64,000 nucleotides of DNA from Bacilli bacterium (GTDB taxonomy: Bacteria > Bacillota_I > Bacilli_A > ML615J-28 > CAG-313), in the NCBI GenBank assembly GCA_017409905.1, contig JAFQRV010000008.1, positions 6,179 to 70,178 on the forward strand, in the 5' to 3' direction. The stretch's first letter is position 1; each line of letters begins with the position of its first letter. The notes beneath the pieces are model-generated. The model was not told the DNA's origin. It saw only the letters and a program-made list of their open reading frames with translations, and ran no database searches. A program made the position numbers and the translations under genes. This document shows positions 11,180 through 37,564 of the stretch, one piece after another.

Positions 11180-12067
11180 ATGCATAAACATAAAAATGAA
11201 TTAGTTGTTAAATTAATTAGAGCATATCAAAAAAATAAAGGAATTATTGGAATTGGGCACTGTAAGTTCTATCCAACATGTTCTAACTATGCTTTAGAAA
11301 CATATAAGAAATTTAATTTCTTTTATGCGAGTATTTTAGTAGGAATTAGACTACTTAGATGCAATGCTTTCGCTAAAAGAAGATATTATCCAGTTAAATT
11401 AACTAAAAAAGAAAAACAAATTAAGAATTATTTAAATAGTTTAAAAGATTACTTAAATGATGATTTTATCGATTATCTACAAAGTTTTAATGATATTGAT
11501 ATAACTCCTGAAGATTTATATCTTGCTATTTATGATTATTATTATTTACCAACTAATGTTCACTTTAATATAAACTATCCAACTAATATGGTATATACTA
11601 ATCGTTTTATTGTTACTGATAAACCGATTAATATCGTAAACAAACCAAAAAATCTTCGTCCATTTGAAGAATACTTAAAAATTGTTGATGAATTATATGC
11701 ATTAAATTTAATTAAAACAAGACCAAAAGAAACATCACTAGATACTACTTATGATTATTTAATTCCTATAGATAGTATTTCTATTAATCAACATTTAGAA
11801 TTATTAGATATTAATGAAGGGTTTGTTTTGATTAACAACTTCAATGAAGAAATTAATTATAAAGATTTTAAAGTAATTAATTTTACTACCAATAAATTAA
11901 AAGACTTTAAAGAATTAATTAAAGATGAAACTAAATTAATTATATTAACTAATAATATTAATATATTTGAATATTTAGAGTATTTAACTTACAGTATTAA
12001 TATTTATGATGATATAAAAGATATTAATTATTTTTATGATTTAAATAAAAGAAAAGCAAATTCCTAA
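11180..12067 (+). CDS. YidD (membrane protein insertion efficiency factor) domain protein with a ~200-aa C-terminal extension
   Basis: YidD core GHCKFYPTCSNYALETYKKFNFFYASILVGIRLLRCN lies near the N-terminus. The rest is Asn/Asp/Tyr/Ile-rich with no recognisable domain. ATG 11180 is preferred to the TTG at 11135. Confidence 0.7.
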   Translation: MHKHKNELVVKLIRAYQKNKGIIGIGHCKFYPTCSNYALETYKKFNFFYASILVGIRLLRCNAFAKRRYYPVKLTKKEKQIKNYLNSLKDYLNDDFIDYLQSFNDIDITPEDLYLAIYDYYYLPTNVHFNINYPTNMVYTNRFIVTDKPINIVNKPKNLRPFEEYLKIVDELYALNLIKTRPKETSLDTTYDYLIPIDSISINQHLELLDINEGFVLINNFNEEINYKDFKVINFTTNKLKDFKELIKDETKLIILTNNINIFEYLEYLTYSINIYDDIKDINYFYDLNKRKANS

Positions 12068-12117
12068 AGAATCTGTTCGTTACTAACAAACAAGTTCTTT
12101 TAGAATTTGCTTTTTTT
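12053..12117. terminator. Long bidirectional terminator between convergent yidD-like and ABC ATPase genes
   Basis: AAAGCAAATTC...GAATTTGCTTT outer 11-bp stem with an additional inner pairing (CTAAAGAA / TTCTTTTAG), flanked by A- and T-runs. Confidence 0.7.
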
Positions 12118-12781
12118 ATTTTGAATTCTTTTTCTTTTTACCAGATATTTTAATTAATTCATACTTTTCATCACACATTGAAGCAACTTCATGTGAATGA
12201 CTAACCAATATAACACATTTACCTTGATCAGCAAGTTCACGAAAAATCTCCATTATTTCTATTTGTGTTTCGCGGTCAAGGTTTCCTGTTGGCTCATCCG
12301 CAAGAATTATATCAGGATTGTAAGAAATTGCGCGAGCAATCGCTACTCTTTGTTGTTGACCACCTGAAAGTTTAAGTACACGGCGGTTAGCTTCATCTTC
12401 ATCAAGGCCAACACTTTCTAAAAGTTCAAAAGCTTTTTTCTTTTTATCTTTAATTTTCACTCCCGATACATCCATTGAAAGAATAACATTTTCTAATGCT
12501 GTATATTTGGTAATTAAATTAAAACTTTGGAATACAACACCAATAAACTTAGAGCGAAAGGTATATTTATCAATCTTATCTATATTCTTACCATCATATA
12601 TAATCTCGCCTTCTGTAGGTTTTGCAAGTCCTGATAAAAGAGATAATAAAGTCGTTTTACCTGCACCAGATTTACCAACAATACAATACATCTTTCCTTT
12701 CTCAAAGTCATAAGAAATATCCTTAAGTACAAGTGTTTTTTCATAAGAAAAACAAATATTTTTAAGTGATAATAAAGCCAT
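12116..12781 (-). CDS. ABC transporter ATP-binding protein (MacB/FtsE-LolD type)
   Basis: Walker A GKSGAGKTT, signature LSGGQQQRVAIARA, Walker B ILADEPTGNLD, H-loop VSHS. Confidence 0.9.
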   Translation of the reverse strand: MALLSLKNICFSYEKTLVLKDISYDFEKGKMYCIVGKSGAGKTTLLSLLSGLAKPTEGEIIYDGKNIDKIDKYTFRSKFIGVVFQSFNLITKYTALENVILSMDVSGVKIKDKKKKAFELLESVGLDEDEANRRVLKLSGGQQQRVAIARAISYNPDIILADEPTGNLDRETQIEIMEIFRELADQGKCVILVSHSHEVASMCDEKYELIKISGKKKKNSK

Positions 12782-12799
12782 TTTAAATATTCTCCTTTC

Positions 12800-14392
12800 T
12801 TAATCTCGGTTAGCGAGTATTTTCAATGGGTCATATCGCATAATAAATAATACCGAGGCAGCACTTGCAATAAGAGTAAGTAATAAACCAACACCAATCA
12901 TTTGTAAAACGACCGTTATATTCATTGCTGAATTAACCTCAGTAATGTAGTCGGCAGCTCCGCCAAACATATTTTCAAAAGGATTTTTACTTCCACTAAT
13001 ATCACTTGGTAAATCAGGTGGCATACTACCCGTAAAACCACTTCCCATATTACCAGGACGTCCAAAATTTTGATTAATTTGATTTTGCTTATTATTCTGA
13101 TTCTCTACTTGTCCTTCAAGAAGGACATTAGTTACAGGGACAGAACTTACTGCGCCAATACTTGAACCAATTACTACAGCTATCATTGTAATCACTAGAA
13201 TCTCACAAACAAACTGTGTAGCAACTTTCCATTTTTTCATTCCCATAGCAGTTAGAACACCAACCTCATATTTACGTTCACGAACATTAAAGATATTAAG
13301 AACCACTAATATAACACCACCAATAATTAAAATAACAAGTAAAAACCAACCAGCCATTTTACTGAGTGTAGTAAGTGGTGCAAGACTATTTTCAAATGCG
13401 GTAATATCCGATGAAGAAACTTTATAACTATCATCTAGACCAAGTTTACGAACTTCTTTTTCAAAAGAATAATAAGCACTAGTATCCGAAAAACAATAAG
13501 TTGCGGAAATATTTCCCTCAATCTTAGTATCTTCTTTATTTGTAAAAGAAGCATCAAGTATTGTTTGTAATGCATTAGCACTCATATAAATTCTATTAGC
13601 GGGATCTTGACTAACTCCAAACATCGACATCGAAAAATCATTATTATCATTACTAGTAAAGATACCTGAAATTGTTAATGTATATGCCTCAGTATTAAGA
13701 GAAGGATTTTGAACGATAATTGAATCACCAACAACAACATTATTATACATTGCCAGTTCTTCAGAGATTACACAAATAAGTTCGCTTGTCCCTTCTTCAA
13801 ACATAGAACCATCGACAATAGATGCATTATCGTTAACAAACTCTTTCATTGCACTGTCATTGCTGTAACCAATAATTGAAAAATCCCCAGAAATTTTTAA
13901 TCCCATGCCTCCCATTCCCCCTGGAAAACCACCAGGAAATGAACTATTGCTTGAAGAACTACTATCTTCTTCTGATTCATTACTAACAGGTAAAAAATAT
14001 TCAGAGCCATTCAAATAAGCTGTTATTGTATAATAAAAATCTTCTACAGTTTCAGACTCAGCATATTTTAAATATTCTTCAAGAGTAAGAGAAGAAGATT
14101 GTTTAAAAATATCTTCAAATTGACTTGGATCAAACTGACCACTTTGAAATCCACTACTATCTTTTCCAGGTCTACCGCCACTAATATTACCCATAGCAGA
14201 AGCTCGGTCATAAGAAATTGTAGCAGTTACACCCATTCCTTCAAGAGCAGACATTTTTGCACTTTCAGCAGCTTGTCTAATAGAAAGACCAATACAAGCA
14301 GATATCGCAATAACCAAAACAATAATACCAATTAAAATGTTTCTTCCTTTTGATCTACCTATACACCGAAGCGCATTCTTAATAATATACAT
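12800..14392 (-). CDS. FtsX-like ABC transporter permease with a large extracytoplasmic domain
   Basis: 530 aa. An N-terminal TM segment is followed by a ~300-aa external domain and a C-terminal FtsX 3-TM bundle (VRERKYEVGVLTAMGMKK). It contains two Gly/Ser/Pro/Asn low-complexity inserts. Confidence 0.85.
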   Translation of the reverse strand: MYIIKNALRCIGRSKGRNILIGIIVLVIAISACIGLSIRQAAESAKMSALEGMGVTATISYDRASAMGNISGGRPGKDSSGFQSGQFDPSQFEDIFKQSSSLTLEEYLKYAESETVEDFYYTITAYLNGSEYFLPVSNESEEDSSSSSNSSFPGGFPGGMGGMGLKISGDFSIIGYSNDSAMKEFVNDNASIVDGSMFEEGTSELICVISEELAMYNNVVVGDSIIVQNPSLNTEAYTLTISGIFTSNDNNDFSMSMFGVSQDPANRIYMSANALQTILDASFTNKEDTKIEGNISATYCFSDTSAYYSFEKEVRKLGLDDSYKVSSSDITAFENSLAPLTTLSKMAGWFLLVILIIGGVILVVLNIFNVRERKYEVGVLTAMGMKKWKVATQFVCEILVITMIAVVIGSSIGAVSSVPVTNVLLEGQVENQNNKQNQINQNFGRPGNMGSGFTGSMPPDLPSDISGSKNPFENMFGGAADYITEVNSAMNITVVLQMIGVGLLLTLIASAASVLFIMRYDPLKILANRD

Positions 14393-14424
14393 TATAAAAC
14401 CTCCATTTTATTTTCGTTAATACT

Positions 14425-14458
14425 ATTTTAACATACTAAACTAAAGACAGACTAAAGA
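14425..14458 (-). promoter_or_regulatory. Response-regulator box plus -10 element driving the ABC permease/ATPase genes
   Basis: On the - strand: TCTTTAG-TCTG-TCTTTAG (14441-14458), then a 10-nt spacer ending in TGT, then TAAAAT (14425-14430). The same arrangement is found upstream of the RR gene. Confidence 0.7.
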
Positions 14459-14486
14459 CAAATGTGAATGTTTTGTGATATTGATT

Positions 14487-14514
14487 AAAAAAGGAATCAC
14501 TCAACGTGATTCCC
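14487..14514 (-). terminator. Terminator after the histidine kinase gene
   Basis: On the - strand: GGAATCAC-GTTGA-GTGATTCC followed by TTTTTT. Confidence 0.8.
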
Positions 14515-14529
14515 ATAATATCAATTCCT

Positions 14530-15768
14530 TTAAAGTATAACTTTAAATCCTATATGTGTATTATCTTTCTTATATACAGATATTTCACCCTTATGTTTTT
14601 CAACAATTGCTTTTGCCATTGATAAACCAATACCATAACCGCCTGTAAACTTTCTTGATTTATCAGCACGATAAAAACGATCGAAAAGTCGGTGTAATTC
14701 TATTTCACCTATAGCTAAATAAGTATTTTCAATTGTTAATATAAGTCGTCTACCTCGACGAAGTGAAACAATAATGTCACCACCTAAATCACAATACTTA
14801 ATAGCATTATCTAACAATATACCAATAAGTCTATGTAAAAGCATTTCATCACCGGCATATTTAATTTTTTCGTCAATATTTGCGGTAAGTATTTTTCCTC
14901 TATTTTTAGCTAACGTTTCAAATTCCAATACCGTATTAGCAACTAGTTTCCCAAAAGAAATCTCAGTAATATTAATAGAATCTTTTTCTTCATCCATACG
15001 TGATAATGCCACAAGCTGGTTCACAAGTTCAGTCATTCTATGTCCTTCCAAACGAATATCTTCAAGCCATTCATTTTTTCCAAGTTCAAGTTCAGCTATA
15101 TCTACATTTGCTAAAATTAAAGTTAATGGTGTTTTCAACTCGTGATTAGCATTTGTAATAAATTGCTTTTGTTTTTCATAACTTTCAGCAATTGGTTTTA
15201 CAGCTTTTTTGGAAAGAAAGAAAATTAGTACTAATACAAGTCCTGCACATCCAAATAACACAATCCCCGCAATTATCATAGATTGCATTAAAGCAGATCG
15301 ACTCATACTGCCATCAACAAACACAACACCATATCCATTTTCTAATGAAAAGACTTTATAACGATAATTTGATATCCAACCTCGTTTATCTTTATCAGTC
15401 ATCACTTTTTCTGCATATGTAATTGCTGTTTCATCATCAATTGCATAAATAGATTCTGTAAAAGTTTGAGTAACATTACCGTTTTCATCAAAAAAGATGG
15501 TAAAGTGGCGTGTAGAAAATGGAGTTTCTGGAGTAATAAAATCAAAAGTTTGTTCGTTTTTGGGAGGCATATTATCCGGGAATGGTCTTTCTTCTAGTAA
15601 ACCAGGGAATTTACCTCCTCCTTCTGAAATACGGTCAGCAAGAATATCCATATTCTTATTCATTGAAGATATATTAAGTACAAAAATAAAACAGAAAACT
15701 AAAACAATTACCGAAAAAACTACCCCTATACTTATTAAAATAAATTTACGTCCAAGTTTATAAATCAT
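14530..15768 (-). CDS. Sensor histidine kinase (two TM segments flanking a ~130-aa extracytoplasmic domain)
   Basis: H-box NHELKTPLT, N/G boxes LLDNAIKY and GGYGIGLSMAK. The start overlaps the RR stop (ATGA). Confidence 0.9.
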   Translation of the reverse strand: MIYKLGRKFILISIGVVFSVIVLVFCFIFVLNISSMNKNMDILADRISEGGGKFPGLLEERPFPDNMPPKNEQTFDFITPETPFSTRHFTIFFDENGNVTQTFTESIYAIDDETAITYAEKVMTDKDKRGWISNYRYKVFSLENGYGVVFVDGSMSRSALMQSMIIAGIVLFGCAGLVLVLIFFLSKKAVKPIAESYEKQKQFITNANHELKTPLTLILANVDIAELELGKNEWLEDIRLEGHRMTELVNQLVALSRMDEEKDSINITEISFGKLVANTVLEFETLAKNRGKILTANIDEKIKYAGDEMLLHRLIGILLDNAIKYCDLGGDIIVSLRRGRRLILTIENTYLAIGEIELHRLFDRFYRADKSRKFTGGYGIGLSMAKAIVEKHKGEISVYKKDNTHIGFKVIL

Positions 15769-16439
15769 GTGGTTTTCTCCAACATATATCCAGTACCACG
15801 AACAAATTTAATTGTCACTGGCACAGAAAGTGTTTCAAGTTTTTTACGGATATTCGAAATATGAACCCATATCACACTCGTATCAACATTTGTATCCCAT
15901 CCCCATATATGTGTAATAAGTTGTTCTGCTGTTACAATTTTATTCGAATTCTGCATTAACATTTCCATTAATTGAAATTCTTTTCCACTTAAAGTTTGCG
16001 TTTTACCACAAAACATAAGTTCGTAAGTAGAACGATTTAATAGCAACTCAAAATATGTTAGTATATCAGGTGTAAATTTATCCTTTCGTCGAAGCATTGC
16101 ACGAACACGTGCAAGAAGTTCCCCAATAGAAAAAGGTTTTGGTAAATAATCATCAGCACCTGCATCTAGTCCTTCAATCCTTTGATCAATTTCCGTTCTC
16201 GCAGTCAAAAATAATGCTGGTGTTGTAATTCCATTATCACGAAGTTTTTTAAGTACAGTTACACCATCCATGTCAGGCATCATAATATCAAGAATAAGTC
16301 CATCATATTCATCTGATGAGGCAAAGTCAAAAGCATCTATACCATTGTCTACACCATCAACAGCATATTTATTTAATTCAAATATATGCACAAGGCTTTT
16401 AAGTAATTTTGGATCATCTTCAGCAATTAAAATCCTCAT
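15765..16439 (-). CDS. OmpR/PhoB-family response regulator
   Basis: Receiver MRILIAEDD...LDIMMPDMDG...PALFLTAR and a winged-helix C-terminus VWVHISNIRKKL...VRGTGY. Confidence 0.92.
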   Translation of the reverse strand: MRILIAEDDPKLLKSLVHIFELNKYAVDGVDNGIDAFDFASSDEYDGLILDIMMPDMDGVTVLKKLRDNGITTPALFLTARTEIDQRIEGLDAGADDYLPKPFSIGELLARVRAMLRRKDKFTPDILTYFELLLNRSTYELMFCGKTQTLSGKEFQLMEMLMQNSNKIVTAEQLITHIWGWDTNVDTSVIWVHISNIRKKLETLSVPVTIKFVRGTGYMLEKTT

Positions 16440-16513
16440 GACATCGCCTCCTTTTACGTATTTCTTAAAACATTATACCATAATTCATTTAGTTCATATA
16501 ATAGATATTATAA

Positions 16514-16547
16514 ATTATAACACATTCTACTAAAGACAGACTAAAGA
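16514..16547 (-). promoter_or_regulatory. Response-regulator box plus -10 element (autoregulated TCS promoter)
   Basis: On the - strand: TCTTTAG-TCTG-TCTTTAG (16530-16547), then a 10-nt spacer ending in TGT, then TATAAT (16514-16519). Confidence 0.7.
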
Positions 16548-36799: not shown

Positions 36800-37564
36800 A
36801 TGAAAAAAATCTTAATTATTATTTTCTTATTCTTATTATCTTCATGTAGAAGTGACTTTATAACATTTAAAAAAAATATTAGTAGTTATAAAAGTTATAA
36901 TCCAAATCATTTAAAGGATTACTATGAACTATACAAAACTAATAATTCTTATATTTTAACCTTAAATCTTATTAATCATCCTACATTTTACACTACTAGT
37001 TATAATCAAATATATTATAATGATATTCTTTTAGTTAATAAACTTCATGGATTAACAAAAGACTTTATACCTAAAAACTTAGTAGAAGTAAAAAATATCA
37101 ATTTTGTGAAAAGAACGAATGAAATAATGATGTTAGATAAAGTTGCTTTAACAAATTTAGAATTACTCTTTATGGACGCGAAAAGTCAAAATATTGATCT
37201 CTTACTTTATTCAGCGTATCGTTCTTATGATAAACAATTATCACTTTGGAAGACAACTCCAACTTTTGATAATTTATATAAAGCAGTCCCTGGTTATTCT
37301 GAACACCAAACAGGACTTGCGGTTGATATAAGCACAATTGACGAAGGATTAACAAGTACTAAAACAAAAGCTTATGAATATTTAGAAAAGAATGCATATA
37401 AATATGGTTTTATCTTAAGATATCCTAAAGATAAAACAGATATTACAGGTTATGCCTATGAACCATGGCATTTTCGTTATGTTGGAAGTATTAGTACTTT
37501 TATTTATGAAAACAATTTAACTTTAGAAGAATATATTTATAATTATATAGAAATAAAACAATAA
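36800..37564 (+). CDS. VanY-type D-alanyl-D-alanine carboxypeptidase (peptidase M15B) lipoprotein
   Basis: Lipobox LLSSCRS. Zn/catalytic motifs SAYRSY, PGYSEHQTGLAVDI, EPWHFRYVG. Confidence 0.88.
   Translation: MKKILIIIFLFLLSSCRSDFITFKKNISSYKSYNPNHLKDYYELYKTNNSYILTLNLINHPTFYTTSYNQIYYNDILLVNKLHGLTKDFIPKNLVEVKNINFVKRTNEIMMLDKVALTNLELLFMDAKSQNIDLLLYSAYRSYDKQLSLWKTTPTFDNLYKAVPGYSEHQTGLAVDISTIDEGLTSTKTKAYEYLEKNAYKYGFILRYPKDKTDITGYAYEPWHFRYVGSISTFIYENNLTLEEYIYNYIEIKQ

Follow-up and report, generated by a model that had tools for sequence, protein, structure and literature searches.

A tandem CTTTAG repeat as the predicted operator of a two-component system and its neighbouring MacB-type exporter in an uncultured gut Bacilli genome

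In a 64,000-nucleotide window of the draft genome of a Bacilli bacterium (assembly GCA_017409905.1, contig JAFQRV010000008.1, positions 6,179 to 70,178), the genes of a two-component system (TCS), which encode an OmpR/PhoB-family response regulator (RR) and a histidine kinase (HK), lie beside an operon for an FtsX-type permease and an ATP-binding cassette (ABC) ATPase, here called the pump. Both operons are preceded by the same 18-nucleotide (nt) direct repeat, with the core CTTTAG-N5-CTTTAG (the box), which is, at a probability of roughly 85%, the operator through which the adjacent RR would activate both promoters. The initial annotation of this DNA had placed an OmpR-family operator at the -35 position of both promoters, and this prediction is supported by the uniqueness of the repeat, by its conservation in orthologues and by its co-variation with the recognition helix of the RR. 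These features and the promoter anatomy are observed directly, and from them we infer binding and the direction of regulation.

As first annotated, the 19-mer ACTAAAGACAGACTAAAGA occurs at 14440-14458 and at 16529-16547, and these are its only two copies in the window. No further match is found in the window when up to three mismatches are allowed, and 100 shuffles gave a mean of 0.06 matches, with no shuffle containing two. On the (-) strand both copies read TCTTTAG-TCTG-TCTTTAG, and in each case a -10 hexamer begins after a further 10 nt, of which the last three are TGT, so that the register is the same at the two promoters, in agreement with the earlier description. The box itself (TCTTTAGTCTGTCTTTAG) occupies 16530-16547 (copy 1) at P1, the upstream promoter of the RR-HK operon, where it forms a predicted site for a tandem RR dimer, and 14441-14458 (copy 2) at the promoter of the permease-ATPase operon, on the (-) strand in both cases. 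After the box, the RR promoter has the 10-nt stretch TAGAATGTGT and the pump promoter has TTTAGTATGT, and the hexamers that begin directly after these are TATAAT (16519-16514) and TAAAAT (14430-14425), respectively. Because TGT precedes the hexamer at both promoters, both have an extended -10 element of the form TGnTAnAAT, which on the (-) strand reads TGTTATAAT at P1 (16514-16522) and TGTTAAAAT at the pump promoter (14425-14433).

Reading of the sequence 16-18 nt upstream of the -10 found no -35-like hexamer at either promoter (best match 3/6), and a consensus promoter scan returned no -35/-10 pair at either of them. A pairing of TTCACA as -35 with TTTAGT as -10 at the pump promoter was ruled out, as the orthologues read TTTAGC or TTTAGG, without the final T. 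Beyond the box and the TGT the two promoter sites are no longer alike, and they are therefore not a duplicated segment.

The host draft genome comprises 1.37 Mb in 50 contigs, with 28% GC and a completeness of 70.7%. A search of this draft, which had been proposed as a check on whether the motif is scattered at random, found TCTTTAG-N4-TCTTTAG exactly at two sites only, which are the two promoters. Among spacings from 0 to 29, a spacing of 4 yields two exact pairs of the heptamer, whereas every other spacing yields 0-1. The only site in the genome with one mismatch, at 37414-37431 of the window, lies antisense within an open reading frame (ORF) and has no -10 element, and it was ruled out as a further member of the regulon. 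Sites with two mismatches number 41, against 33 for a reversed-pattern control, and are not enriched. On the evidence of this draft, the two promoters make up the whole regulon.

Conservation of the box and co-variation with the recognition helix

A homologue of the permease (E <= 1e-20) was found in none of 60 genomes from the host's genus, family and order, and orthologues were therefore taken from distant Clostridia; metagenomes contain thousands of permease homologues. The comparison set consisted of 80 loci from metagenome-assembled genomes of Clostridia from gut and rumen, which were divided into group A (order RR-HK-permease-ATPase, RR at least 66% identical to the window RR), group B (permease-ATPase-RR'-HK', RR' 41-46% identical), group C (RR''-HK''-permease-ATPase, 39-49% identical) and group D, in which a TCS is absent within 4 kb.

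When group A and three A-like loci of group D were examined, a comparison that had been suggested at the outset, the box was found upstream of the permease gene in 20 of 22. Within these orthologous loci of 8-9 kb it occurs on the coding strand only and at promoters only, and the distance from box to -10 is 10 nt in 29 of 29 aligned promoters. In the box-aligned set, information content is highest at TCTTTAG, the spacer CTG, YCTTTAG, TG and TAnAAT, and the other positions and the flanks are unconserved. One group A locus of 46% GC (L120) carries the identical 18-mer at both promoters. A composite pattern of box, 10 nt and TAnnnT, with at most one mismatch, gave 2-3 matches per genome in 10 group A genomes and approximately none in the control.

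The recognition helix of the window RR, as located by helix alignment, is VIWVHISNIRKKL. Across the loci, the A-type helix V(W/Y)VH(I/V)SNIRKK, of which VWVHISNIRKK is the window-type example, is paired with CTTTAG-N5-CTTTAG; the B-type helix VEVY(M/L)SF(T/S)RKK (for example VEVYMSFTRKK) is paired with TTCAAT-N5-TTCAAT in 22/22 loci; and the C-type helix VWVYISYLRKK is paired with TTTAAG-N5-TTAAGG. In group B promoters the TTCAAT repeat is followed after about 9 nt by TATAAT, in group C promoters the repeat is followed after 10 nt by TAnAAT, and the B box is also present at 12 of the 21 promoters of B-type RR' genes. One locus, L086, has the gene order of groups A and C yet carries both the B helix and the B box, and is in effect a natural swap control.

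The same pairing is seen at greater distance. An exact-pattern scan of metagenomes returned 80 loci, in about 43 of which the box stands before VTC-DUF4956-RR operons, Cthe_2159-like genes, ABC-HK modules or the permease gene; the remaining matches, about half, were set aside as chance, being mostly inside ORFs on unrelated environmental contigs. In the VTC-type loci, whose operons are headed by the CTTTAG box, the RR shares only 48% identity with that of the window and has the helix VWVHISNLRKK, while in the ABC-type loci it shares 35% and has the helix INTHISHIRKK. Box type is seen to track the helix and not overall relatedness or gene order, and this co-variation is the strongest evidence, short of experiment, that the adjacent RR would read the box. 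The series of helices and half-sites (HISNIRKK with CTTTAG, YISYLRKK with TTTAAG, YMSFTRKK with TTCAAT) also provides compact data on how specificity changes within the OmpR family.

In the window the predicted operator of the RR stands at a promoter that transcribes the RR-HK operon, an arrangement that fits the positively autoregulated TCS proposed in the initial annotation. Besides the window, L014, L019, L024, L029, L048, L049, L085 and L120 have the box immediately 5' of the RR gene. A second co-directional box was found upstream of RR-HK in 8 of 10 genomes scanned, and where the RR gene has no immediate box, this second box lies 2.6-3.7 kb further upstream, before cargo genes that run into RR-HK. 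The cargo is VTC-DUF4956-Cthe_2159 in two genomes, and consists of GNAT, MaoC and metallo-beta-lactamase-fold genes in G061/L144 and on metagenome contig L118. Because the box stands ahead of cargo genes in these orthologues, autoregulation there would depend on read-through.

The RR-HK operon has another candidate promoter, P2, whose extended -10 element TGGTATAAT (16472-16480, (-) strand) is independent of the box and ends 32 nt before the RR start codon. A TGnTATAAT element about 30 nt before the RR ATG is present in many orthologues, including some that lack an immediate box (L025), and L053, which also has no immediate box at its RR gene, carries the variant TGGTATACT. Judging from these elements, P2 is probably a basal promoter beside an inducible P1.

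Proposed activation and its alternatives

In the proposed mechanism, a signal would be sensed by the outer loop of the HK, leading to phosphorylation of the RR, which would bind the box as a head-to-tail (tandem) dimer on one face of the helix, at approximately -41 to -24. The bound RR would take the role of the absent -35 hexamer in bringing RNA polymerase to the extended -10, thereby activating the permease-ATPase operon and, through P1, its own operon, with the weaker, proximal P2 supplying basal amounts of RR and HK. The site has the features of a class II (-35-replacing) direct-repeat site of the CiaR type, namely tandem hexamers with an 11-base-pair (bp) period, 10 nt to the -10 and no -35. 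The RR, the site and its spacing to the -10 together give a testable operator for an uncharacterised TCS family that is common in uncultured Firmicutes of gut and rumen.

Some observations weigh against activation of both promoters by the RR at this operator. About half of the orthologues lack a box immediately 5' of the RR gene, transcription could start from the extended -10 elements independently of the box, and at 70.7% completeness further members of the regulon could be missing from the draft. The extended -10 elements also bear on a different role for the RR, in which it would bind the box as a repressor, occluding the -35 region until the signal releases it. The site overlaps the footprint of RNA polymerase, and the TGn extended -10 at both promoters can function without a -35, as such a role would require; yet the strict 10-nt, same-strand register in 29 promoters is the arrangement of CiaR-activated promoters, a fixed helical register is not needed for repression, and there is no -35-like hexamer to make a strong basal promoter. 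Repression at the box is unlikely.

It is also conceivable that a DNA-binding protein other than the adjacent RR recognises the repeat, since the pump promoter bears a second repeat that apparently belongs to a different regulator. Tandem half-sites with an 11-bp period are characteristic of winged-helix dimers of the OmpR/PhoB family, the orthologous loci have no other regulator gene in common, and the type of box follows the helix of the adjacent RR across four lineages, including the swap in L086 and the RRs of only 48% identity, all of which make another reader of the box very unlikely. That the two copies match by chance, or are left over from a local duplication, and have no function is the least probable of these alternatives and can be given almost no weight: short repeats are abundant in AT-rich genomes, but only about 0.06 matches are expected here even with up to three mismatches, the identity ends at the edges of the box and TGT, and the box is kept across genomes 20 GC points apart, a degree of conservation that in effect refutes chance. 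Activation by the adjacent RR accounts for the box better than any of these.

Known systems, the second repeat and the function of the module

CiaR-activated promoters of streptococci carry NTTAAG-N5-TTTAAG, located 10 nt from the -10 and with an essential final G (PMC3091779), and the CiaR-like RR BAS0540 of Bacillus anthracis binds the same consensus and has been proposed to be positively autoregulated (PMC4938410). The module in the window resembles the CiaRH system in having an OmpR-family RR, a hexamer-N5-hexamer repeat on the coding strand, 10 nt to the -10, and a half-site that ends in G. In addition, CiaR controls htrA, and in relatives of the module an HtrA-like gene lies within the regulon. 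The two differ in half-site (CTTTAG in the window, TTTAAG for CiaR), in recognition helix (VIWVHISNIRKKL as opposed to VVEVYVSKVRKKL), in main target, which is an adjacent MacB-type ABC pump rather than small RNAs, and in hosts, which are uncultured gut Firmicutes. As the CiaR helix is VVEVYVSK(V/I)RKKL and its half-site TTTAAG, the window RR was not classed as a CiaR orthologue.

At the pump promoter only, a second direct repeat, ATCACA-AAACA-TTCACA (14463-14479, (-) strand), lies 4 nt upstream of the box and likewise has an 11-bp period. P1-type promoters lack this distal repeat, and the cognate RR therefore does not need it. The pattern TTCAYA-N5-TTCAC is kept in 14 of 19 group A loci, in 12 of 25 group D loci and in 1 of 32 loci of groups B and C, with 0-2 matches for a reversed-pattern control. 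Both this repeat and the box-independent P2 had been overlooked in the initial annotation.

A similar repeat is known from YclJK-YclHI of Bacillus subtilis and PieRS-Lmo1505/1506 of Listeria, where the consensus is TTCATA-N5-TTCATA (PMC9545042), which resembles the distal repeat. In these systems, as in the window, a TCS stands beside an ATPase and a MacB-like permease that it activates, with an OmpR-type RR acting on a direct repeat of 11-bp period, and they have been linked to secretion chaperones and proteases (prsA and possibly htrA) (PMC9545042). The window differs in its cognate box (CTTTAG as opposed to TTCATA) and in its gene order, and its RR and HK were rejected as PieR and PieS on their NCBIfam scores, with 121 bits against a cut-off of 450 (NF041209) and 85.9 against 850 (NF041210). 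Judged from sequence, the box is a conserved operator of a known sort, and the module would work like CiaRH promoters and like YclJK-YclHI/PieRS while being a member of neither system. The box is almost certainly the site of the RR, an ordinary kind of on-switch, yet one that is conserved across many uncultured gut bacteria and changes together with its RR. A full-text literature search (YclJ with direct repeat; CTTTAG with response regulator) found no description of a CTTTAG box.

The distal TTCAYA/TTCACA repeat also matches the canonical CssR box of B. subtilis, TTTTCACA (PMC6749698), from the CssRS-HtrA/HtrB system. Of the four OmpR-type RRs in the host genome, one is encoded beyond the window, on contig C24 (6305-9913), in an operon of RR (228 amino acids, aa), HK (468 aa) and HtrA-like protease (422 aa), a gene set that itself recalls CssRS-HtrA/HtrB. 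This operon is preceded by four phased TTCAYN repeats, and such repeats are kept before its orthologues in 19 relatives. In distant Clostridia with group A loci, the order is htrA-RR-HK, preceded by nTCAnn-N5-nTCACA, which is followed after 9 nt by the -10. The best NCBIfam matches of the C24 RR are PhoB-like and below cut-offs, with no CssR model among the best-scoring matches. The RRs of contigs C10 and C48 were rejected as readers of the distal repeat, as no such repeats lie near their genes, and the group B RRs, at 32-37% identity, were ruled out as orthologues of the C24 RR.

On these grounds, the CssR-like C24 RR may also act on the pump promoter through the distal repeat, at somewhat less than an even chance. 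A broader proposal is more speculative and rather doubtful: the pump promoter would be an integration point for two regulators, with the cognate RR at -41 to -24 and the C24 RR at -62 to -46. The module would then represent, in its minimal form, an undescribed envelope-quality regulon of gut Firmicutes; in relatives the box would also drive an HtrA-like lipoprotein gene and the VTC-DUF4956-Cthe_2159 set, and the specificity of the regulators would have been re-wired at least three times through changes to a few helix residues.

The wider regulon of the relatives bears on function. In most group A pump operons the third gene encodes a 473-aa lipoprotein with trypsin-like protease and PDZ domains (HtrA-like), located within a few bases of the ATPase gene in L118 (6274-7695), L120 (6294-7511) and 13 other loci; the window pump operon ends at the ATPase gene and lacks the lipoprotein gene. 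The CTTTAG box with its 10-nt spacing also heads VTC-DUF4956-Cthe_2159(-RR-HK) operons in L143 (2934-6586), L145 (2793-6466) and L146 (2-624), and on metagenome loci such as L154, L160, L171 and L196. These genes were not found in the host genome. Often an inverted box (CTAAAG-N5-CTAAAG) precedes the box of the VTC operons by about 15 nt, an arrangement suggestive of divergent promoters that depend on the box.

The initial annotation had envisaged a module for peptide-antibiotic or envelope-stress detoxification; its first half found no support, and envelope stress is the better fit. Because of the HtrA-like gene, the VTC-DUF4956-Cthe_2159 genes under the same box and the distal CssR-type repeat, the gene content points to a function in envelope or secretion stress more than in peptide-antibiotic detoxification. 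A detoxification module of the Bce kind has some points in its favour. TCS-plus-ABC modules in Firmicutes are typically concerned with resistance to antimicrobial peptides, and in BceRS-BceAB, too, the TCS is linked genetically to an ABC transporter of the FtsX family, which it induces; in NCBIfam the ATPase matches best, although below cut-off, a putative ABC family for bacteriocin export, and the nearest solved chain to the permease, 5XU1, comes from the MacAB-like pump of pneumococcus. BceB-type permeases, by contrast, have 10 transmembrane (TM) helices, BceS-type kinases lack an outer sensing domain, and the sites of BceR-like regulators are inverted repeats that lie 5' of the -35 and not tandem repeats in its place. 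The window permease has 4 TM helices, with its large domain between TM1 and TM2 and not between TM7 and TM8, and the HK has 2 TM helices and an outer loop of about 135 aa, and the module was not classed as Bce-type. With the HtrA-like lipoprotein in most orthologous operons, the surface-related VTC-DUF4956-Cthe_2159 genes under the box in relatives, and the CssR-type repeat at the pump promoter also arguing against it, detoxification of this kind is improbable, if still a serious minority view. A link between a MacB-type pump, HtrA-like proteases and VTC/DUF4956/Cthe_2159 genes narrows the search for their roles.

The closest protein relatives share 78-79% aa identity, with a range of 78-86% over the nearest homologues of the module, and lie on contigs of 46-49% GC, where this was measured; GC is 27% in the window and 32% in the module. 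Together with the absence of the permease from the 60 close genomes, the composition of these nearest homologues indicates that the module (12116-16547) is accessory and was acquired horizontally, in an old rather than a recent event. For the host genome the outcome is modest: an accessory module, acquired horizontally, with a regulon of two promoters.

Genes and terminator of the module

The gene content first assigned to the two units, with RR-HK behind one box and the FtsX permease and ATPase behind the other, was borne out, and all four genes lie on the (-) strand. The RR (224 aa; 15765-16439) has the Pfam domains Response_reg (PF00072, 1.9e-28) and Trans_reg_C (PF00486, 4.8e-24), which place it in the OmpR/PhoB family; its phospho-acceptor is D51, within LILDIMMP, and the nearest solved chains are those of DrrD (1kgs) and PhoP. 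The start of the HK gene (412 aa; 14530-15768) overlaps the RR stop by 4 nt, and in the protein the 2 TM helices flank the extracytoplasmic loop and are followed by HisKA and HATPase_c domains.

The two transcription units are separated by an intrinsic terminator on the (-) strand (14486-14514), the strong terminator of the initial annotation, which has a 9-bp stem (14514-14492) and a U run, at -17.2 kcal/mol and z = -4.2 relative to shuffles. GC-rich hairpins with T runs occupy the same position in orthologous loci.

The ABC ATPase (221 aa; 12116-12781) is of the MacB/LolD/FtsE type by its Pfam and NCBIfam matches. It is followed by a long hairpin (12040-12126), between the convergent ATPase and YidD-domain genes, that is probably a bidirectional terminator; at a permissive threshold Rfam returned only sub-threshold noise from eukaryotic miRNA and snoRNA families, among which this hairpin surfaced.

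No membrane-fusion partner for the pump was found at the locus. The permease (530 aa; 12800-14392) is of the MacB/FtsX type, with matches to FtsX (PF02687) and, below cut-off, MacB_PCD (PF12704); an NCBIfam search gave no match and hence no family name, and its best PDB chains are 5XU1_M and MacB, to which the FtsX region alone was aligned. By its TM profile, TM1 is separated from TM2 by an outer domain of about 310 aa, and TM3 from TM4 by a low-complexity loop of 85 aa. With a 4-TM permease of the FtsX fold and a separate ATPase, the exporter is by its predicted topology a MacB-type (type VII) pump. Low-complexity stretches rich in Gly, Ser, Pro and Asn occur in the permease both in the outer domain (window 13901-13978) and in the TM3-TM4 loop, and its homologues differ in length, from 530 to 555 aa.

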